61,361 bases of DNA, taken from contig CAUEUD010000001.1 of the NCBI GenBank assembly GCA_959020865.1, positions 1 through 61,361 on the forward strand. The letters are read 5' to 3'. Shown in pieces: positions 13,424 to 45,599 of the stretch. This DNA is from Eubacterium limosum (GTDB taxonomy: Bacteria > Bacillota > Clostridia > Eubacteriales > Eubacteriaceae). Numbering within the stretch: position 1 is the first letter of the stretch; each line of letters begins with the position of its first letter. The notes under the pieces were generated by a model that was given only the letters and a program-made list of their open reading frames with translations, was not told where the DNA came from and ran no database searches. The position numbers were made by a program, and so were the translations under genes.

Positions 13424-13425
13424 TT

Positions 13426-18349: not shown

Positions 18350-18388
18350 TTTTATACTCCTTGCTACTTTTTATGCATAACATTTATG

Positions 18389-18500
18389 AATGGAAAATTG
18401 AAAATGGAGAATGAAAGAACAAATCGGCAGAACCGATTTGATTATAATCAAATTTGCGGTGCAAATTTGTCCCATAATTTTTCATTTTCAATTTTAAATT
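18389..18500. repeat. Heptamer-armed hairpin element, copy A (symmetric variant)
   Basis: AATGGAA-type arms inverted at both ends; CAAATCGG/CCGATTTG and CAAATTTGC/GCAAATTTG hairpins. Confidence 0.8.
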
Positions 18501-19432: not shown

Positions 19433-19434
19433 TG

Positions 19435-22904: not shown

Positions 22905-22949
22905 CCGTTTACCTGCCTGTGAGTGCCGGGGAGCTTGCTCCCCAGCCCC

Positions 22950-23171
22950 TTATTTATTTTCAACGATATTCAGAATATCCTGAACCGTTTTTAAATTTGC
23001 CAATGCGTCGTCTTCGATACGGATATCAAATGCGTTTTCAAGTTCCATGGCCAGTTCAACGGCAGATAAAGAGTCAATGCCGAGGTCTTCCTGCAATTTT
23101 GCTTCAGGTACAATTAAGTCCTCATCTACATTGATCGCTTCTACAATAATTTCTTTAACCTGTTCTAACAC
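22950..23171 (-). CDS. acpP: Acyl carrier protein
   Basis: LGIDSL phosphopantetheine motif, acidic 73 aa; TTG start after AAGGAGG. Confidence 0.95.
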   Translation of the reverse strand: MLEQVKEIIVEAINVDEDLIVPEAKLQEDLGIDSLSAVELAMELENAFDIRIEDDALANLKTVQDILNIVENK

Positions 23172-23323
23172 AATTACGTCCTCCTTAAAATTACTTACAG
23201 GTTAAAAGTATATCCGAAATGTTTTCAATTGTAAATAGTTTTATATTAAAATATTTTGAGGTTACGATTTCATTCTTGTTTCTTAAATACTTTTAAGATA
23301 AAACAATACCGCGCCCCCCTTTT

Positions 23324-28829: not shown

Positions 28830-28844
28830 GAAGCTGCTTCTTTT

Positions 28845-31378: not shown

Positions 31379-31388
31379 TGTATTCTCC

Positions 31389-31754
31389 TTACTTTGCTTT
31401 AATGTCACGTGCCGCTATAATGTCAACACCTGTGTCCAAAATATTCGAAACCACCACATCGCCCGCCCGGACCGGTGCTTTTACTGCAATGCCGTAAAGG
31501 GCATGGATACAGTCTCTGAGCTTCGTTTTGCTGACCTCTTCATTGCTGACCACAGGCAGCAGGTTAAAGATACCGCCCTCGATTGCAACCGTTGTGGTCA
31601 GCATCCGTTTGGGGTCGGTATACTCATTGACCGCGTATTTTTTCCCGTTATTGCAGTCAAAGCCAGTGGTTTCAAAGGTTCCGTCATCCTTGATGGTCAG
31701 CTCACCCTTGCAGCTTTTGGGGCAGACAATACAGGTATAATTTCTTTTTTCCAT
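31389..31754 (-). CDS. DUF1667 CxxC protein (G3P dehydrogenase-associated)
   Basis: TCIVCPKSC, C..GKKYA..E, PKRMLTTTV. Confidence 0.88.
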   Translation of the reverse strand: MEKRNYTCIVCPKSCKGELTIKDDGTFETTGFDCNNGKKYAVNEYTDPKRMLTTTVAIEGGIFNLLPVVSNEEVSKTKLRDCIHALYGIAVKAPVRAGDVVVSNILDTGVDIIAARDIKAK

Positions 31755-31760
31755 TTTCCA

Positions 31761-33005
31761 TCACTCCTTTGCCACGCTGATACAGATGGGACCGTCTGTT
31801 GTCTTGCCGAGGTCAATGACCTCACAGACCATTTCCGGCGGCTTGACCACCGCGTGTTTTTTCAGCTTTTGGGACTGCCCATTCTGGCTGAATACCAGTC
31901 TTACCTTTTCGTCAGGCTTTCTGACCCGCATAAAGACTGGAACTTCTCCAACTGTCCCGCTTATTTTCTGGGGAACCACAAAGCTGATGTTATCGCCGGC
32001 TTCCACAGCACGGTACTCATTACCTCCGGTCTCACCCTTTATGTAGCGGACTGCGCCGCGGGCCGCCATCTCTCCGGTTTGAGAGACATAGTCCACCAGA
32101 TCAAATACCGTGACCACATTGCCTGCCGCAAAGACACCGGGCACAGAGGTCATCATCTGCTCGTCCACCACCGGGCCGCGTGTCCTCGGGTCCATTTCAA
32201 TATTCAGATGTTCACTGAGCTCATTTTCAGGGATAAGGCCGACTGAAAGCACCAGAAGATCGCAGTCAATGTATTCTTCGGTTCCTGCGATGGGCTTGAG
32301 GTGTTCGTCTACCTTTGCGACAGTAACGCCCTCGATCCGGTCTTTGCCGTGGATCTTGGTCACGGTGGTGCCCAGGTGCAGCGGTATGTCGTAATCCTCA
32401 AGGCACTGGACGATGTTTCGGGTCAGTCCGCCCTCGGTATGCATGATCTCATAGACGCCCTTCACCTCGATATCCTCAAGCGTCATACGCCTTGCCATGA
32501 TGAGGCCAATGTCGCCAGAGCCTAAAATCACAGCCTTCTTACCCGGCAGGTAGCCCTCCATATTAATGTAGCGCTGAACCGCTCCGGCAGTCAGTACCCC
32601 GGCGGGACGCGTGCCGTAAATCATGACCTGTGAGCGCGTGCGTTCACGGCAGCCCATGGCCAGAATAACAGATTTGGCCTTGATCTCAAGAAGGCCGTCC
32701 TCTTCGTTGACCGCATAAATGGTCTTATCCGGCCGGATTTCCAGCACCATGGTGTCCAGCTTGACTTCAATCCCCTCGTCCTCTACCTCGTCGATAAAAG
32801 CCTGGGCATACTGGCCGCCCGTCATACGGCGTTTAAACCGCAGCAGGCCAAAGCCGTCGTGGATACACTGCTGCAGAATACCGCCGAGGGAAAGGTCCCG
32901 TTCAATAATCAAAGTGTCAAGTCCTGCCCTGTGCGCTTCTACGGCTGCTGCCAGCCCTGCCGGGCCGCCGCCGATAATGGCGCAGTCTGTCTGTATCCGG
33001 TTCAT
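31761..33005 (-). CDS. NAD(P)/FAD-dependent oxidoreductase (G3P dehydrogenase partner)
   Basis: GGGPAGLAAA, GGILQQCIH.GFG, LAMGCRER, GSGDIGLIMARR. Confidence 0.88.
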   Translation of the reverse strand: MNRIQTDCAIIGGGPAGLAAAVEAHRAGLDTLIIERDLSLGGILQQCIHDGFGLLRFKRRMTGGQYAQAFIDEVEDEGIEVKLDTMVLEIRPDKTIYAVNEEDGLLEIKAKSVILAMGCRERTRSQVMIYGTRPAGVLTAGAVQRYINMEGYLPGKKAVILGSGDIGLIMARRMTLEDIEVKGVYEIMHTEGGLTRNIVQCLEDYDIPLHLGTTVTKIHGKDRIEGVTVAKVDEHLKPIAGTEEYIDCDLLVLSVGLIPENELSEHLNIEMDPRTRGPVVDEQMMTSVPGVFAAGNVVTVFDLVDYVSQTGEMAARGAVRYIKGETGGNEYRAVEAGDNISFVVPQKISGTVGEVPVFMRVRKPDEKVRLVFSQNGQSQKLKKHAVVKPPEMVCEVIDLGKTTDGPICISVAKE

Positions 33006-34723
33006 TCTTCCTCCCCCTTTCTGGATGCTGTGGTCAGCATTTCTGAGCCCGCGCCACGCTTGGTAACTTCCTCGGGCGCGATCCCCAGTTCCCTGGCAAT
33101 GATTTCCACAACCCTCGGGCCGCAGAAGCCGCCCTGACAGCGCCCCATGCCTGCCCGGGTACGTCGCTTCACCGCGTCCACGGTTGTGGCTGGTATTTTA
33201 CCGTGTATGGCGTCCACAATCTCGGCCTCGGTAATGGTTTCACAGCGGCAGATCACATGCCCGTACAGCGGATTTTTGGCGATAAGCGCTTCTTTTTCTT
33301 CCAAGGTACAATCTCTGAAAGCCTTGTGCTCAGGACGGATAGGGTCATAATCCTCACGCACAGCGGCTTCGGGGTGAAGCGTTGTGTAAATCCCCTCGAC
33401 CCGTTCGGCGATGGCCGGTGAGGACGCCAGCCCGGGAGACTGGATGCCCGCCACATGGATAAAGTTGTCCAGCACTTCAGACGCTTCGATGATAAAATCC
33501 TCAATATAATTGGATGCCCGGCATCCGCTGAAATAGGTGATAATGTCTTTTTCGGAGGCGCCCTCGGTCAGGTGCTTGCCCTTTTCCATAACAAAGCGTA
33601 CATCCTCTTCGTCCACTGCCAAATCATCTTTTTCCGGCACCTCGATGGCTGAAGGGCCCCACAGCGGGTTGCCCTCGGGTGTCTGGGTCGGGCCGCCGCC
33701 CTTGGTAAAGTTTTTAGGCGGTGTGCCGATAAAACATTTGTTGGTGGTTTTGCCGATCTTTTTATCCAGAATGACCAGTGTGCCCCGGCGCGGATGAATG
33801 GTGTAAAACCGGTCGCCTGCCAGCTCTGCGATTTCGTCGGCATACAGGCCTGCGGCGTTGATGACACAGTCGGCTTCGATGATTCCCTTGTCGGTGACCA
33901 CGCCGTTTAAATGGGCGCCTTGTCTGGTAAAGCCCAATACCTCTGTATTCAGCATAAGCTCTGCCCCATTGTCAATGGCGTTTTCAATAAGGGCTTCAAC
34001 GACCTCGTAAGGCTCAACATAGGCTGCCGATGGGGTCCACAGTGCTTTTACCACATCATGGTTGACTGCCGGGTCAATGGCTCTGGCCTCGTCGCCGCTT
34101 AAAATGGCAATGCCAGGCACACCGTTCTTTTTTCCCAGCTCATAGTACTGCTCCAGATAGGCGTCGTCTGATGCGTCAAAACCCACGACAAAGGAGCCGC
34201 AGCGGTTCATTTTAAAATGAAGTTCTTCCTGCCACTGTGTGTACATGGCATTGCCCTTTACATTGAGCAGGGCCTTCAGAGAGCCTGCCTTTGAGTCGTA
34301 GCCTGAGTGGATCATCCCATTGTTTGACTTGGAGGTCCCCTCAGACACATCCGAGGCTTTTTCGACCACGATAATGCGTTTATTGTATTTCGACAGGGTT
34401 CTCGCAATACCGCTGCCGGTTACCCCCGCACCGATGACCACAATATCGGCCTTGCCGATCACACCGGCGTCCTCTGCCTTTTTCACTTCTTCTGCCCGGT
34501 CTCTCCGGGCCGTCTCTGCCCCCTTGACGGTCAGCCTGTTGATGACCCCTTTTACGCCGCTTTTTCCAGCTGCATGGCCAATGTCAACCACATGCTGCCA
34601 GACATCCACTTCGCCAGTCAGGGTGATCACCCCGCGCGCGTCGGCGCTGGCTTCAATTTTGTAATGTTTTAAGGACGGATCGTCCTTTAGTTTCTGATAA
34701 AATTGTGCAACACAATCGGACAC
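33002..34723 (-). CDS. Anaerobic glycerol-3-phosphate dehydrogenase-like FAD/[2Fe-2S] protein with N-terminal BON-like domain
   Basis: IGAGVTG, TSKSNNGMIHSG, C-terminal BFD-like CRCE...CQGGFC; extra N-terminal GVITLTGEV...GVKGVINRL; GTG start after AAAGGAGA. Confidence 0.82.
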   Translation of the reverse strand: MSDCVAQFYQKLKDDPSLKHYKIEASADARGVITLTGEVDVWQHVVDIGHAAGKSGVKGVINRLTVKGAETARRDRAEEVKKAEDAGVIGKADIVVIGAGVTGSGIARTLSKYNKRIIVVEKASDVSEGTSKSNNGMIHSGYDSKAGSLKALLNVKGNAMYTQWQEELHFKMNRCGSFVVGFDASDDAYLEQYYELGKKNGVPGIAILSGDEARAIDPAVNHDVVKALWTPSAAYVEPYEVVEALIENAIDNGAELMLNTEVLGFTRQGAHLNGVVTDKGIIEADCVINAAGLYADEIAELAGDRFYTIHPRRGTLVILDKKIGKTTNKCFIGTPPKNFTKGGGPTQTPEGNPLWGPSAIEVPEKDDLAVDEEDVRFVMEKGKHLTEGASEKDIITYFSGCRASNYIEDFIIEASEVLDNFIHVAGIQSPGLASSPAIAERVEGIYTTLHPEAAVREDYDPIRPEHKAFRDCTLEEKEALIAKNPLYGHVICRCETITEAEIVDAIHGKIPATTVDAVKRRTRAGMGRCQGGFCGPRVVEIIARELGIAPEEVTKRGAGSEMLTTASRKGEEE

Positions 34724-34792
34724 GATTGTCTCTCCTTTCATCTCTTAAAATCATTATTCCAAGGGATCGGCAAAATTGACTGGATGGTGAAC

Positions 34793-34951
34793 TTTTGAGT
34801 TGACAGTTGATAATGGATCGTGGATAGTTTCGGTACAAATGCCCCTGCGCATTTGATGAGAGCACGGCTTTCAGCCGCGGTTTTAATCGCTTGAGCCCGG
34901 GTGAAAGCGTTCCGTAACTATCCACTGTCAACTATCCATTATCCACTAAAA
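34793..34951 (+). repeat. Heptamer-armed cloverleaf element, copy C
   Basis: AGTTGAY/TGGAT arms; CAAATGC/GCATTTG; CGGCT..AGCCG; AATCGC; GTTCC; ATCCACT arms. Confidence 0.85.
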
Positions 34952-35012
34952 CTTAACAGTCCTCCATTTTCCGCTTTGCCTCTGCCTCTTTTTCTTACTC
35001 CTTTACTCGTCC

Positions 35013-36506
35013 CTATGCCTGCTTACGCCAGCCGACGGAGCGCTCGATGGCTTCACGCCAGCCTGCGTACAGCGCTTCGCGTTTTTCCGGTGTGATGGCC
35101 GGTTCAAAGGATTTGTCGATTTCAAGGGATTTGTCAAAATCGGCTTCGGTCCAGAGGCCTGCTGCCAGGCCGGCCATTTCGGCTGCGCCCAGACTGGTGG
35201 CTTCGACGGATAACGGCCGGTCGACACGGGCGTCAAGCATATCTGCCATGAGCTGTGCCAGCAAATCGTTCATCGATGCCCCGCCGTCAATACGGATACC
35301 AGTCATTTTTACGCCGGATTCCTTTTCGACCACATCCAGAATGTCCTTTAAGCGGTAGGCGATCCCTTCCAGCGTTGCCCGCACAATGTGGGCCTTGGTG
35401 GTACCGCGGCTGATGCCAAAAATGGTGCCTCTGGCATAGGGATCGTGATAGGGTGCGCTGAGCCCTGCCAGCGCAGGTACAAAGTAAACCCCGTTAGAGT
35501 CCTCAACTGAACGCGCCAGCGGTTCCGATTCACTGGATTTGTCAATGACCTGAAGCCCGTCGCGCAGCCACTGAACCGCTGAGCCGGTAACGGCTTCAAA
35601 GCCTTCCAGCGCATAATTGATTTCATCCCCGATCTTCCAGGCGATAACCGTATTTAAGCCCTGATCGGACACGACACATTCGTCACCGATGTTGATATCT
35701 AAGAATGAGCCTGTCCCGTTGGTGATTTTACAGGTGCCCTTGGAACGGCAGCCCTGGGCATAAAGCGCGGCGTGCTGGTCGGCAATGGCGCCGCAGATGG
35801 GAATCTCTGCCCCGAAAATATCCGGCTCTGTGGTGCCGTAGTTGCCGGAGTCGTTGACGATTTCGGGATAAATATCGGTTGAAATCCCCAGATAGTCTAA
35901 GAATTCGGTGTACCATTCCCCTGTGCTTAAATCCAGGCTGCCCATGACAGAGGCGTTCGAATAGCTGACCACATGGCTCTTTCCGCCGGTCAGCTTCCAG
36001 ATCAGCCAAGTGTCAATGGTGCCGAAAAGCGCGTCGCCGGATTCGATCTTTTCTTTGATTTCCGGCACATTTTCAAGATACCAGTGCAGCATCAGGGAGG
36101 AATAAACCGGCGCTACCGTCCATCCGGTGGCCTTGCGCGCTTTTTCTCCCCATTCACTGTCATTGATTTCCTGACACAATGCCGCGGTGCGGTTATCCTG
36201 CCAGACAATGGCGTTGTACAGCGGCACGCCGGTGTTCTTATCCCAGACCAGGCAGGTTGCCCGCTGGTTGGTAATGCCGATGGCGGCGATGTCGCTGCTG
36301 GCGATTTTCGCTTTTTCAATGGCTTCACGGCACACGCCCACGCTCTTGGCGTAGATTTCCATGGCGTCGTGTTCAACCTTGTCCTCACTCGGTGTGTACT
36401 GTGTGAATTCTTCATAGCACTGAGATACAATATTAAATTCTTTGTCAAAAATCAGCGCTCTTGTACCAGTTGTTCCTTCGTCAATGACTAAAACATAGTT
36501 TTTCAT
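35013..36506 (-). CDS. glpK: Glycerol kinase (FGGY family)
   Basis: DEGTTGTRA, GITNQR, WQDNRT, GTIDTWLIWKLTGG, VPALAGL.APY; DEGTT and ADQHA variants suggest the substrate may differ from glycerol. Confidence 0.75.
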   Translation of the reverse strand: MKNYVLVIDEGTTGTRALIFDKEFNIVSQCYEEFTQYTPSEDKVEHDAMEIYAKSVGVCREAIEKAKIASSDIAAIGITNQRATCLVWDKNTGVPLYNAIVWQDNRTAALCQEINDSEWGEKARKATGWTVAPVYSSLMLHWYLENVPEIKEKIESGDALFGTIDTWLIWKLTGGKSHVVSYSNASVMGSLDLSTGEWYTEFLDYLGISTDIYPEIVNDSGNYGTTEPDIFGAEIPICGAIADQHAALYAQGCRSKGTCKITNGTGSFLDINIGDECVVSDQGLNTVIAWKIGDEINYALEGFEAVTGSAVQWLRDGLQVIDKSSESEPLARSVEDSNGVYFVPALAGLSAPYHDPYARGTIFGISRGTTKAHIVRATLEGIAYRLKDILDVVEKESGVKMTGIRIDGGASMNDLLAQLMADMLDARVDRPLSVEATSLGAAEMAGLAAGLWTEADFDKSLEIDKSFEPAITPEKREALYAGWREAIERSVGWRKQA

Positions 36507-36650
36507 TTTTTTACTCCTTTACTCCTCAAAAAATGATTATTCAGTTGTCTTCTTTATGCTCAGCTTTGCTGTCAGAAACCTCCTTTCCTCCTTCGCCTGT
36601 AAATGCTTTACATATTCACTTTTTATGTATTTTGTATTGACTTTATGTTA

Positions 36651-36679
36651 ATATTATATGCTTTTTGATGGTTTGTCAA
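36651..36679 (-). promoter_or_regulatory. Putative sigma-A promoter of kinase/G3PDH operon
   Basis: TTGACA with TAATAT at 17 bp (TATAAT overlapping). Confidence 0.55.
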
Positions 36680-36714
36680 CTAATTTTTAAATTTTGCAAA
36701 ATTTACAATAAAAA

Positions 36715-37287
36715 AAGCACACTGGTCTCCACAGTGTGCTTAGCATGTCAAAAACTTTATCATGAAGCGATAAAGCGTTAAAAAGAGGATGGTTCAGTTG
36801 AAAGTTGAAAGTGGAAAATGGAAAGTTCAGGTGCAAATTCGCCATGCGAATTTGATTCGATGCAGCCATAGGCTGCACTTTTAATCGCTTTTGCACCCGC
36901 AAAAGCTCTCTTTAACCTTCCACTTTCAAGCTTCCACCTTCCACCTGAAATTTCCTCTTACTTTTACTTTGAATCACGCTGTCAGCTTTTGGGACAGTCT
37001 AAGCACACTGGTCTCCACAGTGTGCTTAAAATGTCAAAACTCTGAGAGACGAAGCCTTTTACCTAAGGAAGAAAAAAGGGTTCCGCGGGCATTACCCTCT
37101 CCCAGGTATCTTCTTCACTAAAGTTAATGCTTTATCTCGCCAGTGTCCGGCTGTTGCAGTAAAGCGGCACCATTTCCGGCCGTTATTCACAGCGCCAGGA
37201 CCTTTTTTCTTATCTGGATAAAAGGCGCAGTCTCAAACCACGCCACTTCTTTGACGGGATAAACACACTGGTCTCCACAGTGTGCTT
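36715..37287. repeat. Three copies of a 27-bp palindromic repeat (36715-36741, 37001-37027, 37261-37287)
   Basis: AAGCACACTG-GTCTCCA-CAGTGTGCTT, copy 3 with one mismatch; separated by 259 and 233 bp; copy 1 is followed by a T-run on the minus strand (terminator-like). Confidence 0.92.
36793..36949 (+). repeat. Heptamer-armed cloverleaf element, copy D
   Basis: AGTTGAA/AGTGGAA arms; CAAATTCGC/GCGAATTTG; GCAGCC-ata-GGCTGC; AATCGCTTTTGC...GCAAAAGC; TTCCACY arms. Confidence 0.88.
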
Positions 37288-37295
37288 AAATCCTG

Positions 37296-37928
37296 TTAAT
37301 TCCGGCAGATCTGTACGGCAGCCTCGGCGGCGCTTCCTGCGTCCTTGGCAAAGGCGTCACAGCCCGTTTTATCACAGAAATCCTGCGTAATGGGCGCTCC
37401 GCCAATCATAATCTTAAACTGTTCCCGGACACCCGCATCCTCAAAAGCCTTAACAATTTTGGGGATTTCAGGCATGGTGGTGGTCAACAGCGCAGAACAG
37501 GCCACAATATCGGCCTTCTCTTTGACAGCGGCCTCCACAAAACGCTCCTCGGGCACATCAATGCCGATATCCACGACTTTAAAGCCCCGGCCCTCAAACA
37601 TCATTTTTACCAGGTTTTTACCAATATCGTGCATGTCTCCCTTTACGCTTCCCAGCACAATGGTTCCGGCGGCGGTCTGCTGGTTTTCTAAAAGCAGAGG
37701 CTTCAGCACCTCTGACCCGTTCTGCATGGCGTAGCATGAGCACAGCACCTCCGGTATATAGATCTCTTCGTTTTTAAACTCCTCTCCCACCATCTCCATC
37801 GCTTCCATCATGGTGTCCAGAATGGCCTGCGGACTGGTCCCCTTGTCCACTGCCGCCTGCACCATGGAGGGTGTCTCATCCTCTAATCCTTCATAAACCG
37901 CATTTTTTATCTGATCTAATAGATTCAT
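37296..37928 (-). CDS. Corrinoid (cobalamin-binding) methyltransferase protein
   Basis: Cap domain (F...EIYIPEV) plus GDMHDIGKNLV, SALLTTTM, IGGAP B12-binding motifs. Confidence 0.93.
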   Translation of the reverse strand: MNLLDQIKNAVYEGLEDETPSMVQAAVDKGTSPQAILDTMMEAMEMVGEEFKNEEIYIPEVLCSCYAMQNGSEVLKPLLLENQQTAAGTIVLGSVKGDMHDIGKNLVKMMFEGRGFKVVDIGIDVPEERFVEAAVKEKADIVACSALLTTTMPEIPKIVKAFEDAGVREQFKIMIGGAPITQDFCDKTGCDAFAKDAGSAAEAAVQICRN

Positions 37929-37947
37929 TCCTGTCTCCTCTGTTTTC

Positions 37948-39492
37948 TCATTTTAATGCCAGCTTCACCAGGCGCTCGTAGACGTCTGCCTTTCTCAGTG
38001 CCTGGTAGGCATCCTTGTATATTTCAAAATATTCATTATACAGCGCGTGCCGCTGCATATCCGGCTCACAGACGGCAACGATCTTCACCATGTGGGCAAC
38101 GGCTTCACTCACGTTTGCGTAGAGCTCTGCTCCCAGAGCCGCCAGAATCGCCGCACCCAGTGCTGTGGCCTCCTCTACAGCCAGAATACTGCAGGTCTTG
38201 CCATAAATATCTGCCTGGATATGATTCCAGACGTCGGATTTTGCGGCGCCGCCGCTCAGTACAATCGCGTTGACCTCAACGCCGTTTGTGATCATCTGGT
38301 CGATGATTTCGCGGGTTTCGTAGGTAACGCCCTCCATAATGGCCCGTGCCATGGCCTGCCGGCTGTGGCCCAGGGTCAGGCCGATAAAGGTTCCCCGAGC
38401 AAAGGGGTCCCAGTTCGGCGCGGCTGAACTGGCAAAATACGGGATACAGATGAGCCCGTCGCTGCCGGGACGTATGCCCTCGACCTGTTCATTGATCAGG
38501 TCGTAGGGGTCGATTCCCAGGGCCTTTGCCTTTTCAATCTCTGGCACGGCAAATTCATTCCGGTACCATTTCAGGGAGCTTCCAGCCGCGTTCTGCAGGC
38601 CTTCTGTCTCCCACTTGCCCGCTACGGTATGGGCCGAGCATGGCAGGCGCATGCTGCCGTCGTAGATCGGCTCGTCCATATAGGCCAGAGTGACGCCTGC
38701 GGTGCCGATGGTCACCTCAATGGTGCCTTTTTTCACAGCGCCTGCACCAATGCCGGCGCACTGCTGGTCGCCGCCGCCCGAAACCAAAAGGGTTCCCTCG
38801 GCAAAGCCTGTGAGCGCACTGCTCTCTCTGGATATTTTCCCAACCACCTTGCCCGAAGGCACCAGGTCGGGCAGCTTGGATTTGTCAAGTTCCAGAGCGT
38901 CTACGAGCTCATCGCTCCACTCAAAAGCCTTGATGTCCATCAGCCCCTGGAGGGAGCCGTTGGACCAGTCCTCAAAGTAGCCCTCTGCGCCGAGCTTGTT
39001 TAAAATACGCTCCTGATCCATGGCAAATTTATAGGTTTTTTCGTAAATTTCCGGCTGGTGTTTCTTGATCCACATGATCTTGCTGACTGACCAGGTCGTG
39101 CCCACTGGCAGGCCGGTGATCTCATAATAGCGCTCTGCGCCCACCAGGCGGCCGATCTCCTCACATTCCTCAAAGGAACGGCTGTCCTGCCAGGAGATGG
39201 CAGACCGCAGCGGCATACCGGCTTCATCCACCGGGGTAAAGGTACAGCGCTGGGTGGAAAGGCCGATGGCGCGGATTTCCGCAGGATCGACGCCTGCTTT
39301 TGCGATGGCTTCACGGGTGGCCTCACAGGTCTGCTGCCAGGTCATCTCTCCGTCCTGTTCTACCCATCCCGACTGCGGAAAGGTACAGGGATACTCACGG
39401 TAGGCACTGCTGACAGTGGCGCCCTCCATGTCAAAAATAATCACTTTTACGCCAGTTGTTCCGATATCGATTCCACTAATATAATTTTTCAT
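37948..39492 (-). CDS. FGGY-family carbohydrate kinase (xylulokinase-like)
   Basis: GIDIGTTGVK, WQDSRS, GGGDQQCAGIGAG, SGGAAKS..W..IQADI. Confidence 0.9.
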   Translation of the reverse strand: MKNYISGIDIGTTGVKVIIFDMEGATVSSAYREYPCTFPQSGWVEQDGEMTWQQTCEATREAIAKAGVDPAEIRAIGLSTQRCTFTPVDEAGMPLRSAISWQDSRSFEECEEIGRLVGAERYYEITGLPVGTTWSVSKIMWIKKHQPEIYEKTYKFAMDQERILNKLGAEGYFEDWSNGSLQGLMDIKAFEWSDELVDALELDKSKLPDLVPSGKVVGKISRESSALTGFAEGTLLVSGGGDQQCAGIGAGAVKKGTIEVTIGTAGVTLAYMDEPIYDGSMRLPCSAHTVAGKWETEGLQNAAGSSLKWYRNEFAVPEIEKAKALGIDPYDLINEQVEGIRPGSDGLICIPYFASSAAPNWDPFARGTFIGLTLGHSRQAMARAIMEGVTYETREIIDQMITNGVEVNAIVLSGGAAKSDVWNHIQADIYGKTCSILAVEEATALGAAILAALGAELYANVSEAVAHMVKIVAVCEPDMQRHALYNEYFEIYKDAYQALRKADVYERLVKLALK

Positions 39493-39525
39493 CTCTACTC
39501 TCTCCAAAAATTATTTTTTATTCGC

Positions 39526-40674
39526 TTACAATTGAATGGGATAGACGCCGAATTCGTGGGCACATTCGATCATGTGCACCAGATTTTCCGCGCTCACATC
39601 GCTCTGAACATTGTGGGCCGGTGACAGCAGAAAGCCGCCGCCCGGGGCCAGCGCCTTAATGGCGTCGCGCACTTCCCCGGTGATTTCGTCCTTTGTGCCA
39701 AAGGGCAACACTTTCTGAATATCAATATTGCCGTGAAAGGCGATTTTATCACCGAATTCCTGTTTTAGCTCGTAACGGTTCATATGGTTGGCGCCTGGCT
39801 GTACCGGGTCCAGAATGTCGATGCCGCAGTCGATGAGGTCCGGGATAAAGGGGCGGATGGAGCCGCAGCTGTGCAGCATAACCTTCCCCTTGGGGTTCTT
39901 CTTAAGCAGCTCTGTCTTCGCGCTTACCCAGAGCTCCTCAAGATGGGGTTTTACTACCTTCCGGAAGGTTCTCGGTGAAATGAGCGGGCTGTCCTGTGTG
40001 CCCAGATCCTCGCCGCTCAGGCGCAAAATATCCACGTATTCGCCGACAGCGTCGATGCAGACACGGTCGATTTCCTTCTGTATTTTACAGACCTTGTCCA
40101 GCAGCGCGTGGGCAAATTCCTGATTGTTGACCAGGTCGCGGTACCAGCGCTCATGGCCGCGCATATAGGTGGCCACCTCAAAGACCGCGCCGGCAAATTT
40201 TGCCAGAATAGCCAGATCGCTTTTGTCCCGGACCATCTGCATTTCCTCACGCAGGCCCTCAAACCGTTTGGGGTCGCTGGGGTCCGGCCATTCATAATCT
40301 TCCAGATCCTCGATGGTGGCGTCTGCCAGCGGCGGGTTCTGCAGTTCAAAGTAAAAATGCCCGCCGTCGATCATGGTCTTTTTCCAGTAGCAGCCCCATT
40401 CGTCGGTAAAGCTGCCGTCCTCAAACTGTCTGGAATGGGCTGATTTTGCCGATCTCGGCGAAATGTAGTACATGTCCAGATCCAGGCACTGGATCATCTC
40501 CAGCGGCATCTGTACATCGGTCCAGTGGCCCATCCGGGGGGTGTCTGGAAGATGGTCCATCTTCAGCAGCCTTTTCATATCTCTGTATACATCAATGGTC
40601 AGGACCATGTCCACAGGCACCCGGTCGGGCTCCTGGTGGCTGGCCGCTGCCATCACACGTTCTCTCGAATTCAT
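39526..40674 (-). CDS. Uroporphyrinogen decarboxylase / MtaA-CmuA-family methyltransferase-like protein
   Basis: MNSRERV.AA..H.EPDRVP, EDLGTQ..PLISP, LHSCG, NIDIQ..LP.GT, L.PAHNVQ. Confidence 0.85.
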   Translation of the reverse strand: MNSRERVMAAASHQEPDRVPVDMVLTIDVYRDMKRLLKMDHLPDTPRMGHWTDVQMPLEMIQCLDLDMYYISPRSAKSAHSRQFEDGSFTDEWGCYWKKTMIDGGHFYFELQNPPLADATIEDLEDYEWPDPSDPKRFEGLREEMQMVRDKSDLAILAKFAGAVFEVATYMRGHERWYRDLVNNQEFAHALLDKVCKIQKEIDRVCIDAVGEYVDILRLSGEDLGTQDSPLISPRTFRKVVKPHLEELWVSAKTELLKKNPKGKVMLHSCGSIRPFIPDLIDCGIDILDPVQPGANHMNRYELKQEFGDKIAFHGNIDIQKVLPFGTKDEITGEVRDAIKALAPGGGFLLSPAHNVQSDVSAENLVHMIECAHEFGVYPIQL

Positions 40675-40689
40675 TCTTGTCTCTCCTTT

Positions 40690-41259
40690 TTACAAACTCC
40701 AAAGCGCCTCGCAGCTGCACACAATGTTCATGGCGCCTGCCTGGATCATTGTTTTGACATCGCTCGGCTTTGAAACCAGCCCGCTTGTGATCACAGGCTG
40801 TTCAAATTCACTGCTCACCTTGCGCACGATCCGCGGGATCAGCCCTGGCGTCAGCTCGATAATATCTGGCTTCGACGCTTTAAACAGGTTGATACCGCTT
40901 TCCAGCGCCTGATTGTCCATGAGGAATATCCGGTGCACGGTGATCAGATTTTCCTTAGCCGCCAGCTTCAGAATATGGCTTTTGGTCGAGATGACGCCAT
41001 CGATCCCGGTGCGCTCTACCGCGTGCCGGATGCCGCCAATATCTCGTCCAATGCCCTCAATCAGGTCCATGTGCAGGAATACCAGTCCATTGCGCTCTTT
41101 AAATTCCTTAATCAAATTTTCTGCCTTAAAGTAATCGCCTCCTACCATAAACAGCACCCGAACCTTAGAGTCGAGAGCCTGTCTGAAATTCTCCGGGGTC
41201 CGCACAGCAGCGATAACCGGGTATGCCTTAAAAGTCTTCATTTGTTCCTTAGTGATCAT
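40690..41259 (-). CDS. glpP: Glycerol-3-phosphate-responsive antiterminator
   Basis: PVIAAVR, HMDLIEG, DGVISTK, IHRIF-like VHRIFLMD, ELTPGLIP, PVITSGLV. Confidence 0.88.
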   Translation of the reverse strand: MITKEQMKTFKAYPVIAAVRTPENFRQALDSKVRVLFMVGGDYFKAENLIKEFKERNGLVFLHMDLIEGIGRDIGGIRHAVERTGIDGVISTKSHILKLAAKENLITVHRIFLMDNQALESGINLFKASKPDIIELTPGLIPRIVRKVSSEFEQPVITSGLVSKPSDVKTMIQAGAMNIVCSCEALWSL

Positions 41260-41290
41260 TGGAGTGGCCTCTTTCCAATGATTCAAGATA

Positions 41291-41345
41291 GAAAAAAACC
41301 GCCATAAACAAACGGGATAACTCTCCCATTTATTTATTGCGGTTT
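41291..41345 (-). terminator. Leader terminator upstream of glpP (candidate GlpP target)
   Basis: AACCGCAATAAATAAATGGGA...TCCCGTTTGTTTATGGCGGTTTTTTT lies between promoter and glpP start. Confidence 0.75.
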
Positions 41346-41380
41346 CTACAATCTCAAACCAATACGTATTAATTTATTTC

Positions 41381-41409
41381 ATAATAGCATGTCTGTAAAT
41401 CGATGTCAA
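41381..41409 (-). promoter_or_regulatory. Sigma-A promoter of glpP operon
   Basis: TTGACA-17 bp-TATTAT with TG extension. Confidence 0.7.
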
Positions 41410-41444
41410 CGGTTTTTTCTGTTATTAAGGAATCTTTTACGATT

Positions 41445-42212
41445 TTACAGGATCTCTATCCCGTTATTCCGGGCGTATTCTCTGTAAATCTCCGGCTCTT
41501 TACCGTCGACAATAAAGGCCTCAAAAATATTCAGGTCAAACATCTTTGCCAGAGATATCTTGTCGAACTTGGTATAGTCGGCCATGAGATAGCACTTCTG
41601 GCTGATCTCGGCCAGCGTCTGGTTGACCTCGATCTCCTCCAGCGAGCTGTGGGTCACGCCCTTGGGAATGGAAACAGCCAAAACCCCCATAAAGGCTTTG
41701 TCAATGTTAAACTTCCTGAGGAAATCGTCCGCGTCCTTTCCGTAAAAAGCGCCGGAAATGCTGCGCAGCCGCCCGCCGGGCATAAAGACATTCACACCCT
41801 TTACAGTGGATGCCTTGAGGGCCACATTCAGCGACAGCGTTATGACGTTCAGGCTTTTCATATCCTCCAGATAATCGAGAACCAGCTCGACGGTGCTGCC
41901 GGAGTTCAGCGCGATGGTGTCCCCATCCTTGATCAGCCTTGCCGCCTTTTGCGCAATGATCCGTTTTTCATCCAGGTTTTGCAGCTTCTTCTGGGCAATG
42001 TTCATCTCCACAGTGGTCTGGCTTGCCAGGCTTTCCTTGGCATAGGCGCCGCCGTAGGTCAGCTCAATGCCGTACTCCTCTGCCAGGTATTTTAAATCCC
42101 TCCGGATGGTTGGCACGCCCACCTCATATTTTTTTGCCAGCGCGTCGGCCTTTACAGAGCCCTCCTTCAGGATTTTATTGAGTATTTCTTTTCTGCGTTC
42201 TACATGCAGCAT
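41445..42212 (-). CDS. DeoR/GlpR-family transcriptional regulator
   Basis: ERRKEIL...TIRRDL HTH; EKRIIAQKAA.LI.DGDTI.L.SGST. Confidence 0.93.
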   Translation of the reverse strand: MLHVERRKEILNKILKEGSVKADALAKKYEVGVPTIRRDLKYLAEEYGIELTYGGAYAKESLASQTTVEMNIAQKKLQNLDEKRIIAQKAARLIKDGDTIALNSGSTVELVLDYLEDMKSLNVITLSLNVALKASTVKGVNVFMPGGRLRSISGAFYGKDADDFLRKFNIDKAFMGVLAVSIPKGVTHSSLEEIEVNQTLAEISQKCYLMADYTKFDKISLAKMFDLNIFEAFIVDGKEPEIYREYARNNGIEIL

Positions 42213-42272
42213 TTAATTCACCGCCCTTTTCTACCAACACTATACCATTTCTTTCATACCTGTGCAAGGGGT

Positions 42273-42836
42273 TCAGCCGGCTGTTCCCTGCCATTCACGG
42301 CGCAGAATGCTGTAAACGGCCGCGTCGCAGCGCCCATAGTTGCTCACATTGTATTCCCGGAGCACCCCTTCTTTTGTCATACCGCACTTCTGCATGACTC
42401 TCCCGGACGCCGGGTTTTCCACCGCGTGCAGAGACTCAATGCGGTTAACACCCACGCGCTCAAAGAAAAAACGGATCACCGCTGACAACGCCTCAGATGT
42501 GAGCCCCTGATTCCAGTATTTCCGGCCAATGCAGTAGCCCACATGCACATACTCAGCCGCCTCGTCGACACGGACCGCGCCAATGCTTCCAATGGGCTCG
42601 CCGGTTTCCTTCAGCGTGATGCACCAGTTGTAATCACTCAGTAAAATGGCGTCGTTCTGCCACTTTTCGATGATGGCCCGGGAGTCCTCAGGGCTCTCGT
42701 GGGTGGGCCAGCTCATAAATCGGGTAACCTCCGGGTCTCCTGCCCAGCCCAGGTACATGGCCTCTGCGTCGTCAATGGAAAACTGACGCAGCACCAGCCG
42801 CTCGGTTTCAATTCTACGCGTTCCCTGATGGTTCAT
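42273..42836 (-). CDS. RimJ/RimL-type GNAT N-acetyltransferase
   Basis: ETERLVLR, GYCIGRKYWNQG, NPASGRVMQKCGM. Confidence 0.9.
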   Translation of the reverse strand: MNHQGTRRIETERLVLRQFSIDDAEAMYLGWAGDPEVTRFMSWPTHESPEDSRAIIEKWQNDAILLSDYNWCITLKETGEPIGSIGAVRVDEAAEYVHVGYCIGRKYWNQGLTSEALSAVIRFFFERVGVNRIESLHAVENPASGRVMQKCGMTKEGVLREYNVSNYGRCDAAVYSILRREWQGTAG

Positions 42837-42934
42837 GGTTATCACTCACTTTCTTTTATAGAGTATTATATCAAGAATTTTTTCAACTGTCGATAAAGAT
42901 TTCGGCATAAAAGTCTTTTAGGTGGAAGGAGAAC

Positions 42935-43071
42935 AGTTGAAAGTTGATAATTTTGGTGCAAATTCACTAAAGCGAATTTGATGAGATGCGACCTGCGGCC
43001 ACAGTATTAATCGCTTTTGTGTCAAGCAAAAGGGTTCAATAACTATCCACTATCAACTCTCACTCTCAACT
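42935..43071 (+). repeat. Heptamer-armed cloverleaf element, copy E
   Basis: AGTTGAW arms; GGTGCAAATTC/GAATTTG; AATCGCTTTTG...CAAAAGGGTTC; ATCCACT/ATCAACT arms. Confidence 0.85.
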
Positions 43072-43141
43072 AACCACTCCTTTTCCTGATTTTTTATGAT
43101 ATAATACTTCCAGAAAAATGCGAATCAGGAGGTTTTTACAC

Positions 43142-44257
43142 ATGCTTACATCAACCACGCGCGCATTTGGCTCCCCCAGCCGCTACATTCAGGGCTACGG
43201 CGAGCTTGAGCGCCTTCAGGACTATACAGCCGACTACGGGAAAAAGGTGCTTGCCATCATCGACCCGTTTTTTTACGACACCCTTTCCCCATCCCTAAAG
43301 GAAGCCTTTGAGGCTGCTGGCTCTGCCATCGAATCCGTTAAATTCGGCGGCGAAACCACCATCACCGAGCTTGAGCGTCTGGCGGCTATCGCCTCGCAAA
43401 ACGGCAGTGATGTCGTTGTGGGGATCGGAGGCGGTAAAACCATCGACGCGGCCAAATACACCGGCATCGCGGTATCCGCAGCCATTGTCATTGCCCCGAC
43501 CTCTGCCGCCACCGACGCGCCGACCTCTGCGCTCTCGGTCACTTACACCGAGGAAGGCGTCCACGCTGAAACCATCTATTTCAAACGCAACCCCGACCTC
43601 ATTCTGGTCGACAGCAAAATCGTCTCCAAAGCGCCGATCCGTTTGCTGGTATCTGGGATGGGCGACGCGCTGTCCACCTATTTTGAAGCCCGGGCGCATC
43701 TGGAGTCCAACACCGCCAACCGCATTGGAAAAGGCTACCGCACGACCCTGGCAGGGATGGCGGTGTCTGAGCTGTGCTACCGGGTGCTGCTTGAGGACGG
43801 CCTGAAGGCCAGGCAGGCTGCCGAAGCCGGCGCCTGTACCGAGGCGCTTGAAAACATTATCGAGGCCAACACCCTGCTCAGCGGGCTGGGCGTAGAATGT
43901 GTGGGCTGCGCAGGAGCGCACGCGCTGAACAGCGGCTTTTCCGCTGTGGAGGCCTGCCGGAATTACACCCACGGTGAGATCGTCGCCTTTGGCACCCTGT
44001 GCCAGCTGGTGCTCGAAAACCGCCCAAAAGCGGAAATCGAGGAGGTTTTGGACTTTTCCACCAGCGTGGGCCTGCCTGTCACCCTCGCCGAAATCGGTCT
44101 GGATGCCCGTATGGAGGCCGATCTTCGCCTGGTAGCCGAGCGCGCCGCAAAGGCCAAGCACATCGCCGCCGAGCCTGTCACCGTTAACCCTGAAATCATC
44201 TACCATGCCATCCTGGCCGCTGACGCAATGGGCCGGGGGTGGAAGACGGAAGGTTGA
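43142..44257 (+). CDS. gldA: Glycerol dehydrogenase
   Basis: SPSRYIQG, GIGGGKTIDAAK, PTSAATDAPTSALSV, GMGDALSTYFEA, HGEIVAFG. Confidence 0.88.
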   Translation: MLTSTTRAFGSPSRYIQGYGELERLQDYTADYGKKVLAIIDPFFYDTLSPSLKEAFEAAGSAIESVKFGGETTITELERLAAIASQNGSDVVVGIGGGKTIDAAKYTGIAVSAAIVIAPTSAATDAPTSALSVTYTEEGVHAETIYFKRNPDLILVDSKIVSKAPIRLLVSGMGDALSTYFEARAHLESNTANRIGKGYRTTLAGMAVSELCYRVLLEDGLKARQAAEAGACTEALENIIEANTLLSGLGVECVGCAGAHALNSGFSAVEACRNYTHGEIVAFGTLCQLVLENRPKAEIEEVLDFSTSVGLPVTLAEIGLDARMEADLRLVAERAAKAKHIAAEPVTVNPEIIYHAILAADAMGRGWKTEG

Positions 44258-44284
44258 TTCAAGGTTAAATCCAGAGGCTGTTTT

Positions 44285-44473
44285 AATGGAAAATTGAGAA
44301 TGGAGAATGGAGAATGACGATGAGTCCAAAGTTAGAATAACTTTGGGGAACGAACCTAATGCATAGCTACAGGAACAAAATGCTGCGCATTTTGAATGAA
44401 ATAGCGGCCATAGGCCGCTGTCTTAATCGCTTTTGCGGCAGCAAAAGAGGTTTTTCATTTTCCATTCTCAATT
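44285..44473 (+). repeat. Heptamer-armed cloverleaf element, copy F (with extra hairpin)
   Basis: AATGGAG arms; extra CCAAAGTTA/TAACTTTGG hairpin; CAAAATGC/GCATTTTG; AGCGGCC-ata-GGCCGCT; AATCGCTTTTGC..GCAAAAG. Confidence 0.88.
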
Positions 44474-44527
44474 AACAGTCCTCTCATTCACGTTCTGCCT
44501 GTTTATGATAGCATTTGTCTACACGCT
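44474..44527 (-). mobile_element. MITE-like shell end (AGCGTGTAGACAAA...GAGGACTGTT)
   Basis: Reverse complement aligns with 36742-36794 and 53441-53485. Confidence 0.6.
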
Positions 44528-44529
44528 GC

Positions 44530-44554
44530 GACCGTTTTTATACGGTCTTTTTTT
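44530..44554 (+). terminator. Intrinsic terminator after gldA
   Basis: GACCGT-ttttat-ACGGTC followed by T7. Confidence 0.7.
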
Positions 44555-44776
44555 AATATCACAATTTTTTACCCTTTCTGGACAAAAAAAACGGGAACTT
44601 TTTCTCTTTTTTTTCGATTGTATAGATAGAGGCCTTTACACGTGAATAAGGGCAAAGACAAACAAAAGTTGCTCATTTGGCACTAAAACGCAAAAGCATT
44701 TTTTAAAAGCATTATATATTTCATTTTATAATATATTCACTTAAACCAGATGGTTGCTATTTCTGCCAAAAAAGGA

Positions 44777-44863
44777 ATGTATGTAGTAGAAGCATTTTTT
44801 TACAATGATCAATGAAACACCCTGCCATTTTCAAAAAACTCGGTATGTATGTAGTAGAAGCAT
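44777..44863 (+). repeat. 19-bp perfect direct repeat (44777-44795, 44845-44863)
   Basis: ATGTATGTAGTAGAAGCAT twice, just upstream of the replication initiator RBS. Confidence 0.85.
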
Positions 44864-44882
44864 CTCAAGAGGAGGAAAAAAT

Positions 44883-45599
44883 ATGGATTATCTCAAACAG
44901 CTCAACGCCTACCGGAGAAAGCGCCTGGCAGCGCCCATCTCATCCAACGCCATTGCCCTTTACGCCATTCTGCTGGAGTACGCCAACGACCTGTATTTCC
45001 CAGACCGCTTTACCGCGGCTAATTCAGTGATCTGCGGCCTCAGCGGCCTCAGCCTGACGCGGATGCAGGCCGCCCGGAAGGAGCTCTGTGAAGGCGGTTT
45101 CCTGGCTTATACGAATGGGCACAGGGACCAATGCGGTACCTATCAGCTTACCGATCTGGTTCAAGCCTCCAGCATGCCCCAACAAGACGCAAAACCGGAC
45201 AACAAACCAGTTAGTAAACCGGATACTAAACTGGTTAGTAAACCGGACAGCAAACCGGTTAGTAAACCGGATAACAAACTGGTTAGCAAACCGGACACAT
45301 TAAATAAACCAAACCAAAGCAAACCAGACCAACTAAAAGAGCGCTACGGCGACTTCGTGACCCTCACTCCCGATGAACGGATAAAGCTGAGGGAACGCCT
45401 GGGCGAACCGGACACCGTGCGCTACATCGAAAGACTAAACGAGTACATTGGCCAAATCGGCCAGAAAGCCGCCAATAAGCGCTACAGAAGCCATTACCAT
45501 ACCATTCTCAGCTTTTACCGCAGAGACTCGGAAAAGCGGCATGAACAGCCAAACAGCTCCATTCCAGATTACACCGCAAACAAAGGAGAAAGCCTGTGA
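44883..45599 (+). CDS. Phage-type replication initiator / replisome organizer (N-terminal wHTH)
   Basis: MDYLKQLNAY...SSNAIALY..LL..AN...F.A.NS.....SGLS...AR..L...G pattern; internal low-complexity repeat; GAGGAGG RBS; followed by DnaC-like gene. Confidence 0.75.
   Translation: MDYLKQLNAYRRKRLAAPISSNAIALYAILLEYANDLYFPDRFTAANSVICGLSGLSLTRMQAARKELCEGGFLAYTNGHRDQCGTYQLTDLVQASSMPQQDAKPDNKPVSKPDTKLVSKPDSKPVSKPDNKLVSKPDTLNKPNQSKPDQLKERYGDFVTLTPDERIKLRERLGEPDTVRYIERLNEYIGQIGQKAANKRYRSHYHTILSFYRRDSEKRHEQPNSSIPDYTANKGESL
45192..45299 (+). repeat. Nine tandem 12-bp units (24-bp period); candidate iterons
   Basis: AAACCGGAYANY alternating with AAACYRGTTAGY, followed by an A/C-rich strand-asymmetric tract. 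Confidence 0.9.

Follow-up and report, generated by a model that had tools for sequence, protein, structure and literature searches.

A conserved cassette of glpP, UroD-like, FGGY kinase, and corrinoid protein genes in Eubacterium limosum and its relatives is a candidate system for kinase-coupled demethylation of O-methylated polyols or sugars

The stretch of Eubacterium limosum DNA that we analyzed (assembly GCA_959020865.1, contig CAUEUD010000001.1, positions 1 to 61,361 of the forward strand; hereafter the window, 61,361 nucleotides [nt] long) carries four minus-strand genes encoding, in order of transcription, a paralogue of the antiterminator GlpP, a protein of the uroporphyrinogen decarboxylase (UroD) family, an FGGY-family kinase, and a corrinoid protein. 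A first-pass annotation, made from the sequence alone, had read them as a GlpP-controlled operon joining a sugar kinase to a corrinoid methyl-transfer module. Domain calls and coordinates bear out its description of four co-oriented and tightly spaced genes (spacers of 15, 18, and 19 nt) next to genes for a DeoR-family regulator, GlpK-family and glycerol-3-phosphate dehydrogenase (G3PDH)-like proteins, and gldA (Table 1). The four genes form a self-contained unit that has a promoter, a terminator leader, and a terminator to itself. The query protein of the window is 98% identical to its counterpart in Eubacterium callanderi strain FD. GlpP matches PF04309 with 174 bits (cut-off 27); its start is more likely the ATG at 41259, behind GGAAAGAGG, than the TTG at 41286, immediately next to the leader terminator. 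Our reading, to which we assign a probability of about 0.5, is that this is a corrinoid methyltransferase system in which the UroD-like protein, as substrate:corrinoid methyltransferase (MT1), demethylates an O-methyl polyol or sugar that has been phosphorylated by the kinase.

The UroD-like protein matches PF01208 with 113 bits, over profile positions 101 to 346 only. It is not a member of the MtaA/CmuA family (TIGR01463, 74.1 bits with a cut-off of 235.4), nor of the HemE family (TIGR01464, 22.5 bits with a cut-off of 302.95). In its AlphaFold2 (AF2) model, which has a predicted local distance difference test (pLDDT) score of 94, it is closest to the structure of MtaA (4ay7; Foldseek E value of 1.3e-15, template modeling [TM] scores of 0.65/0.72) and next to uroporphyrinogen decarboxylases. 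Residues H268-x-C270, which align with the MtaA zinc motif, and H354 are invariant in 21 homologues. A profile of these 21 homologues has a marginal match (E value of 5e-4) to the UroD-type MT1 CdmB (9rui), confined to the C-terminal 78 residues. The putative partner, the corrinoid protein, displays the motifs DxHxxG (D98-M-H100-D-I-G), SxL (S145-A-L), and GG (G176-G177). When we predicted the complex of the two proteins, the ipSAE was 0.63 versus 0.00 for the best control, a value attained by 116 of 157 solved complexes but only 2 of 215 mismatched pairs. Contacts agreed between runs at 90% or more, the partner pLDDT was at least 84, and the predicted interface on the corrinoid protein consists of cap helix residues 54 to 66, together with residues 102 and 105 beside the DxHxxG loop. 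This model supports docking of the UroD-like protein on the corrinoid protein. Moreover, in 8 of 20 loci that we fetched from Eubacteriaceae, a gene for a pterin-binding methyltransferase (MT2) is found directly behind the corrinoid gene. Given the complex model and these cis-encoded MT2s, it is well supported that the UroD-like/corrinoid pair is a methyl-transfer system, as the first-pass annotation had proposed.

The FGGY kinase scores best among NCBIfam models with XylB (TIGR01312), of which it is not a member, since its 370.7 bits are just below the cut-off of 380.25; its orthologue in Eubacterium aggregans reaches 357.7 bits. Among solved structures, glycerol kinases are nearest (229 bits). 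We found ten orthologues with at least 75% identity in Eubacteriaceae, all of them inside UroD/corrinoid clusters, and the homologues that come after these ten are at most 45% identical. Nine are beside the UroD gene, and the tenth is on a 2.6-kb contig with the order FGGY-Corr-MT2 (Corr being the corrinoid gene) that ends within the kinase gene. In clusters that have no orthologue of this kinase, another FGGY-family kinase is present instead in 11 of 12 loci. The kinase is therefore an integral and dedicated part of the module, which agrees with the role it had been given at first.

We next consider how widespread the cassette is. In 53 Eubacteriaceae genomes, the UroD-like protein has matches at an E value of 1e-60 or below in 20, with full-length copies (21 copies including that of the genome under study, 74 to 100% identity) in 18; the remaining two genomes have one broken fragment and one 36% paralogue only. 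Among 401 genomes sampled from the phylum, just four others match at 1e-80 or below, with 39 to 42% identity. The corrinoid gene is adjacent in 18 of the 20 fetched loci and an FGGY-family kinase gene in 19; of the two loci without an adjacent corrinoid gene, one is at a contig edge and one has the broken UroD copy. These loci display four architectures. In A1, seen in the window and in all four sister genomes of the genus, the order is DeoR-GlpP-UroD-FGGY-Corr, followed by a GlpK-like operon. In A2, seen in Eubacterium barkeri, E. aggregans, and two Acetobacterium contigs, it is GlpP-UroD-(HAD)-FGGY-Corr-MT2. B1 is DeoR-GlpKlike-UroD-Corr, and B2, found in Acetobacterium and often flanked by Dak1 genes, is DeoR-UroD-Corr-MT2-GlpKlike. 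In one Acetobacterium, the gene separating UroD from FGGY encodes the HAD phosphatase, and a HAD phosphatase gene is likewise found beside a 43% UroD homologue and an FGGY kinase gene on a metagenome contig. In a maximum-likelihood tree, the 21 UroD-like copies of the family form one clade (support 97/95), with the DeoR-type copies as a subclade (100/99) that neighbors an Acetobacterium A2 copy. That the four genes belong together, one of the claims made initially, is confirmed by this neighborhood analysis: the arrangement is kept across three genera and is not due to chance.

Database proteins homologous to the UroD-like protein are numerous (3,578 at an E value of 1e-10 or below), all named just "uroporphyrinogen decarboxylase (family)". 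Among metagenome homologues with 37 to 50% identity, we observed the orders GlpK-like-Corr-UroD (L068) and FGGY-UroD-Corr (L095), a Corr-UroD pair with a sugar ABC transporter (L074), and ABC permeases-FGGY-UroD-HAD (L093). Two longer loci start with genes for a sugar-binding protein and permeases, followed by UroD-GFO/IDH/MocA-FGGY-GlcD-CCG-GldA in one (L101) and by UroD-Corr-xylose-isomerase-like-cupin-FGGY in the other (L136). A separate observation concerns a locus from another Bacillota family (L058, G134:C66:18000-35000), which contains two UroD-Corr pairs, an MT2 gene, and an aquaglyceroporin-like fragment, preceded by genes for an AraC regulator and an ArsP-type permease and followed by Fer4, NrfD, molybdopterin oxidoreductase, and CobW genes. 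It looks like a different, possibly respiratory-linked, methyl system.

Judging by their genes and leaders, the clusters of the relatives appear to be regulated either by GlpP and a conserved terminator leader or by the DeoR regulator. In the window, the leader RNA preceding glpP folds with -35.7 kcal/mol (z -7.8), and none of 200 shuffled sequences was as stable; promoter and leader are also present in the sister genomes. An AAACC segment (41345-41341) can pair either with GGUUU at 41360-41356 or with GGUUU at 41300-41296, the latter being the 3' foot of the terminator. In E. barkeri and E. aggregans, GGUUU...AAACC...GGUUU is replaced by GGCU...AGCC...GGCU, a single three-way matching change that is consistent with a choice between terminator and antiterminator. 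The leader is kept in the type A loci open to examination, and one Acetobacterium has it immediately upstream of the UroD gene instead of glpP, which ties it to the methyl-transfer genes. By eye, a three-part design of the same type is apparent in 7 of 8 leaders, including those of the GlpP paralogues on contigs C130 and C135, with that on C67 being ambiguous. The consensus fold of 10 leaders is weak (-3.45 kcal/mol), in an alignment in which MAFFT misregistered the hairpin arms and two paralogue leaders were off-coordinate. No cobalamin riboswitch or other known riboswitch was detected by Rfam at an E value of 1 or below over positions 28000 to 45000, and we rejected an Rfam match of the leader hairpin to a miRNA family as a chance match.

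The genome encodes four GlpP paralogues, at least three of which adjoin FGGY-family kinases. Two of the others are in GlpK-GlpP-FGGY-SDR-GlpA... and GlpP-amidohydrolase(Amidohydro_3)-GlpK operons, and the fourth is at a contig end. The layout of the amidohydrolase operon parallels GlpP-UroD-FGGY. Control of the cassette by GlpP, as first proposed, is a reasonable inference from the GlpP-type terminator leader before the operon and from regulators of types that sense polyol phosphates; glycerol-3-phosphate, the ligand named in that proposal, is a candidate ligand of this one of four paralogues.

Table 1. Features of the cassette and its surroundings, with positions in the window
Feature	Position	Strand	Basis or remarks
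Cassette promoter, sigma-70-like	41381-41409	minus	TTGACA, 17 nt, TATTAT; TG ahead of second hexamer
Leader RNA, long hairpin + U-run (intrinsic terminator), putative GlpP antitermination target	41292-41360	minus	
glpP paralogue (G3P_antiterm antiterminator)	40690-41259 (open reading frame to 41286)	minus	PF04309, 2.3e-51
UroD-fold TIM-barrel protein, predicted MT1	39526-40674	minus	PF01208
FGGY-family kinase, XylB-like, unnamed subfamily	37948-39507	minus	Both FGGY domains
Corrinoid protein, cap + Rossmann B12-binding domain	37296-37928	minus	PF02607 + PF02310
Operon terminator hairpin, copy 1 (10-bp stem, 7-nt loop)	37261-37287	minus	Copies 2 and 3 at 37001-37027 and 36715-36741; T-run after copy 3
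Promoter-like site of GlpK-like operon	36650-36679	minus	
GlpK-like kinase, divergent paralogue	35013-36506	minus	NCBIfam models, residue alignment
GlpA-like FAD dehydrogenase	33002-34741	minus	
Pyr_redox_2 protein	31761-33005	minus	
DUF1667 protein	31389-31754	minus	
GlcD-like FAD oxidase	29969-31408	minus	
375-aa protein, no Pfam family	28845-29972	minus	
DeoR-family regulator	41445-42212	minus	Pfam HTH_DeoR + DeoRC; best NCBIfam AgaR, 192 bits, under cut-off; synteny
gldA	43118-44257	divergent	Glycerol dehydrogenase model, 446 bits (cut-off 336)

The genes on either side of the cassette belong to an operon that is conserved in five genomes (G020, G035, G037, G038, and G044), with the order DeoR, GlpK-like, GlpA-like, Pyr_redox_2, DUF1667, GlcD-like, and 375-aa protein. 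In the genus of the window, the four-gene cassette separates the regulator gene of this operon from its kinase gene, with a 789-nt spacer between the corrinoid gene and the GlpK-like gene. Since the GlpK-like/G3PDH-like genes exist without UroD/corrinoid genes in other genomes, the GlpK-like operon is a separate unit that received the cassette by insertion, and the two do not descend from one ancestral operon. The DeoR regulator is 67 to 69% identical to that of the Acetobacterium UroD-Corr clusters, and because UroD/Corr genes have joined the DeoR/GlpK-like pair in three arrangements (A1, B1, and B2), a functional link to this pair is suggested.

What had been called a glycerol kinase does belong to the GlpK family, but it is a divergent paralogue and not the housekeeping enzyme. 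It is below the cut-off of TIGR01311 (582.1 bits versus 590.35) and passes the subfamily model NF000756 with 604 bits, compared with about 860 bits for the best GlpK of sister genomes. We examined 26 GlpK-family genes across five genomes: against NF000756, the best copies of four sister or Acetobacterium genomes score about 850 to 860 bits, whereas the top score in the genome under study, which is incomplete, is 697 bits; copies linked to the cluster score 580 to 604. We then aligned these paralogues to E. coli K-12 GlpK, on whose sequence residue identities were checked, and compared Arg83, Glu84, Trp103, Tyr135, Asp245, and Phe270, which we take to be its glycerol-binding residues. The window's kinase has Ala and Val in place of Glu84 and Tyr135, and the pattern R-A-W-V-D-F at positions 83/84/103/135/245/270 is found in all five cluster-linked paralogues and in none of the 21 others, 15 of which retain Glu84. 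More generally, there are four to seven GlpK-family kinases per genome in Eubacteriaceae, with at least five residue patterns at the glycerol-binding positions in the five genomes.

Two other products of this operon have unusual features. The GlpA-like open reading frame is extended at its N terminus by about 90 residues; this extension matches a BON domain (1.9e-8) and is kept in E. callanderi FD. The gene for the 375-aa protein always follows the gene for the GlcD-like oxidase. This protein contains only five cysteines and was placed near CCG/Fe-S-binding proteins (score 0.92 to 0.94) by a search with a protein language model (Atlas), which is a lead only; it may be a degenerate GlcF-like partner.

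The spacer between cassette and GlpK-like gene contains the terminator hairpin in three exact copies, found nowhere else in the genome. E. callanderi FD has one such hairpin with a T-run, followed by the promoter of the GlpK-like gene, and in the window about 540 nt of dispersed repeats are inserted between the hairpin copies. We considered and rejected the three hairpins as GlpP targets, since E. callanderi FD has one ordinary terminator and the extra 540 nt of the window are repeat insertions. The 5' leader of the GlpK-like gene has no significant fold (z -0.59). The two repeat insertions each lie between hairpin copies, which looks like a duplication of the target. The first repeat (37028-37262, minus) is about 220 nt long and dispersed, with 45 matches in the genome (44 besides its own copy, a few of them short fragments) at 71 to 87% identity and no Rfam match at an E value of 1 or below. 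Twelve copies share a consensus fold (RNAalifold, -44 kcal/mol) with an outer stem GAGAC...GUCUC. RNA contigs of four runs pile up on it, with a summed word depth of 5,000 to 24,000 versus 5 to 56 for flanking genes, and many of these contigs are partial with differing flanks. It could be a miniature inverted-repeat transposable element (MITE) or an abundant structured RNA of a new type. The second repeat (about 36790-36960) has inverted GGAAAGT/GGATAGT-like end units around two short hairpins, and repeats of this type are also present beside two other glpP paralogues (contigs C67 and C135; L168 and L170).

In the pathway that we propose, a small and probably uncharged O-methylated polyol or sugar would enter the cell and be phosphorylated by the dedicated FGGY kinase. 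The UroD-like MT1 would then demethylate the phosphorylated ether, with the corrinoid protein in its Co(I) state as methyl acceptor, and the conserved His-x-Cys...His may hold a metal activating the poor alkoxide leaving group. An MT2, here a stand-alone copy encoded elsewhere, would pass the methyl group to tetrahydrofolate and hence to the Wood-Ljungdahl pathway, with RACE-type activators, also encoded elsewhere, keeping the corrinoid reduced. The demethylated polyol phosphate would be the signal for the GlpP paralogue, which would then override the leader terminator, and would also be handed to the adjacent DeoR/GlpK-like/G3PDH-like operon. The parts list and the synteny are what we observed, and the chemistry is our interpretation of them. 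We place the kinase before MT1 because its position is exclusive and interleaved, a HAD phosphatase is occasionally present, the regulators are of sugar-phosphate type, and distant homologues have carbohydrate contexts. An O-methyl glycerol or related C3-C5 polyol ether as donor is a guess, made because the neighbors are of glycerol type and there is no transporter gene. In the original proposal, phosphorylation and B12-dependent demethylation of an O-methylated polyol were to release a glycerol-phosphate-like backbone; for the kinase-first order there is a precedent in MthK of the same species group (PMC12155760), whereas the O-methyl donor and the glycerol-phosphate-like product are presumed. 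Should all of this apply, the system would be the first anaerobic non-oxidative demethylase for aliphatic (carbohydrate or polyol) methyl ethers, with a new clade of UroD-like MT1, a kinase acting first and a GlpP paralogue reading the phosphorylated product via a leader family that diversified together with FGGY/GlpK kinases, a wider claim that we make tentatively and at somewhat less than even odds.

Several results weigh against this pathway. No transporter gene is encoded in the cluster or the window, and the window also contains no MT2 (Pterin_bind) or activator (RACo_C_ter) gene, exactly as had been noted before. Both kinds of gene are encoded on other contigs, with 8 hits to Pterin_bind and 4 to RACo_C_ter in genome-wide scans; the closest stand-alone MT2 (contig C223) is 59 to 63% identical to the cluster-encoded MT2 of relatives. 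Among metagenome loci, 45 have 4 kb or more of flanking sequence; of these, only six have a corrinoid gene within 5 kb of the UroD homologue and only five an FGGY kinase gene. By identity of the UroD homologue (40% or more, 35 to 39%, and less than 35%), these fractions are 2/8, 3/17, and 1/20 for the corrinoid gene and 2/8, 3/17, and 0/20 for the kinase. Two of the ten FGGY orthologues (G034:C11:398005-399552 and G017:C97:24191-25735, the latter at 8934-10622 of L007) have an in-frame TAA, which may reflect decay or sequencing error. Two genomes without a UroD orthologue, G020 and G044, have the GlpK-like operon by itself, and in G037 and G038 it is not linked to the UroD cluster; because it occurs without UroD/Corr, its altered kinase pocket is not in itself an adaptation to methoxy compounds. 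As for the proposed metal, the third zinc ligand of MtaA, a Cys, is a Gly in the UroD-like protein (APGGG versus APGCG), and the case for a metal role of His-x-Cys...His is weak because CdmB, also a UroD-type MT1, does not need zinc (PMC13222342). Nothing in the evidence establishes an O- rather than an S- or N-methyl donor. According to PMC4791908, E. limosum SA11, whose cassette content is unchecked, did not grow on glycerol, ethylene glycol, or 2-methoxyethanol, and with the same reservation we rejected 2-methoxyethanol as an unlikely substrate for the genus. On the supporting side, the genes are covered by RNA-library contigs of all four runs, which come from four studies. In a pure-culture run, a single contig of 5,594 nt spans 37275 to 41450, including the glpP, UroD, FGGY, and corrinoid genes, and ends inside the first terminator hairpin. 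These are assembled contigs, however, from which neither expression level, transcript ends, induction, nor a single transcript can be read. Uncovered bins in runs X8 and X11 carry no meaning.

Other explanations share most of these parts. The order of events might be reversed, with MT1 demethylating the free ether and the kinase (FGGY here, GlpK-like in Acetobacterium) trapping the polyol as its phosphate and inducer. A kinase for the demethylated backbone fits because the DeoR-type clusters use a GlpK-family kinase that also heads a UroD-free catabolic operon, and in this genus the cassette was inserted exactly beside that operon. Yet a trapping kinase need not be dedicated, and the FGGY group is confined to the clusters, between MT1 and corrinoid genes; the HAD phosphatase in two clusters suggests transient phosphorylation; and in the sole worked-out case the phosphorylated compound is the substrate of MT1 (PMC12155760). 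We therefore consider the reverse order unlikely, although worth keeping in mind. An S-methyl donor, i.e., a methylthio (or other heteroatom) sugar or polyol such as the methylthio-pentose/-pentulose of methylthioadenosine salvage, phosphorylated by the XylB-like kinase before S-demethylation, would suit the kinship of the kinase to pentulose kinases and the retained His-x-Cys of a protein whose nearest structure, MtaA, is a zinc thiol methyltransferase. MtaA-like proteins and corrinoid partners have in addition been tied to methyl-sulfur and methyl-selenide metabolism (PMC10418091). We judge it improbable all the same: none of the 20 family loci contains a gene for sulfur metabolism, methionine salvage, or thiol handling, the conserved neighbors are all of glycerol/polyol type (GlpP, DeoR, GlpK-like, Dak1, GldA, and G3PDH-like), and a thiol-sugar would have no obvious sink.

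The resemblance to MtaA also raises the question of direction. Methyl transfer to and from corrinoids can in principle run both ways, no structure matches better than MtaA, and no enzyme of the cluster must be an MT1, so that the UroD-like protein might methylate an acceptor made by the kinase, from methyl-corrinoid loaded by MT2, for a biosynthetic or detoxifying purpose. The contexts are catabolic and inducible, however (antiterminator, DeoR, dehydrogenases, and sugar uptake by distant homologues), the hosts, being methylotrophic acetogens, possess many catabolic systems of this sort (this genome has 21 UroD-family hits), and there are no genes for product export or downstream biosynthesis, which makes this direction very doubtful. 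Finally, the association might be an artefact of insertion, the UroD/corrinoid pair serving an aryl methyl ether, a methanol-like compound, or a halomethane, and FGGY and GlpP an unrelated sugar. The cassette is visibly mobile relative to the DeoR/GlpK-like operon, the genome has about 20 other UroD-family genes, and most homologues in the wider family have no nearby kinase gene. We find such an artefact harder still to credit, given that the kinase gene is flanked by those for MT1 and the corrinoid protein, with 18- to 19-nt spacers and in an order kept across three genera, that its orthologue is found nowhere else and is replaced by another kinase of its family in 11 of the 12 loci where it is missing, and that the likeness to CdmB and aryl O-demethylase relatives is marginal and C-terminal. 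Demethylation of a kinase-phosphorylated O-methyl polyol or sugar thus remains our preferred reading.

If true, what would this mean? The known corrinoid systems of acetogens and methanogens act on methanol, methylamines, quaternary amines, methyl sulfides, aryl methyl ethers, and halomethanes. Plant and algal matter is rich in methylated sugars and polyols, and we know of no anoxic route for their demethylation, nor of any such enzyme for a phosphorylated small sugar alcohol. A literature search returned no paper linking a UroD-type MT1 or corrinoid protein with an FGGY/glycerol kinase, GlpP, or methylated sugars/polyols; nothing relevant is present in the main text of the E. maltosivorans proteome paper, and the lone carbohydrate demethylase that surfaced is an oxygen-dependent P450 (PMC6292453). 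The cassette would add a new class of substrates to methylotrophic acetogenesis in gut and sediment, with the methyl carbon going to acetogenesis and the phosphorylated backbone to glycolysis without extra ATP cost. It would also make phosphorylation-gated demethylation a recurring principle, not a peculiarity of choline, and would provide a defined function for the large "uroporphyrinogen decarboxylase family" set of 3,578 database proteins. Since the host genus is genetically tractable (PMC10223405), the idea of kinase-coupled demethylation is directly testable.

The closest known parallel is choline demethylation in the E. limosum group, in which MthK phosphorylates choline and MthB demethylates phosphocholine only (PMC12155760). 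As in our cassette, the kinase is encoded with MT1 and corrinoid protein, there together with an MT2 (MthK/MthB/MthC/MthA), the corrinoid proteins are of the same family, and the MT2 is of the same pterin-binding type as in relatives of the cassette; the phosphorylated compound is the donor there, as we propose here. The Mth system differs in that MthB, a member of the MttB superfamily, uses a quaternary amine as substrate and MthK is a relative of serine kinases (PMC12155760), whereas the cassette has a UroD-fold MT1, an FGGY kinase, GlpP-type control, and presumably a donor that is not an amine. MT1s of the UroD superfamily are established for aryl methyl ethers and haloalkanes, with many clades having no assigned substrate (PMC13222342). 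MtvB, OdmB, VdmB, MtoB, and CdmB share with our protein the UroD TIM barrel, and their partners are a small corrinoid protein, an MT2 of the pterin-binding type, and an activator that depends on ATP; they come from the same genera, Acetobacterium and Eubacterium, CdmB being the chloromethane MT1 of Acetobacterium (PMC13222342). Their substrates have good leaving groups, their systems include no kinase or sugar-type regulator, and the sequence likeness is marginal.

MtaA (4ay7), a methylcobamide:coenzyme M methyltransferase, is only 18% identical to the UroD-like protein, which has Gly for its third zinc Cys, and the host presumably has no coenzyme M metabolism. As to control, glp antitermination in B. 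subtilis likewise combines a GlpP-family protein with a leader containing an intrinsic terminator before catabolic genes. Here, GlpP is encoded by the first gene behind its own putative target, is one of four paralogues, and precedes a methyl-transfer module. Demethylation of carbohydrates by P450 enzymes is oxidative and oxygen dependent and releases formaldehyde. Like the system that we propose, the P450 carbohydrate demethylases of marine bacteria strip a carbohydrate of an O-methyl group and so open it to catabolism (PMC6292453), but our system would operate in anoxic conditions and would conserve the methyl group as methyl-tetrahydrofolate.

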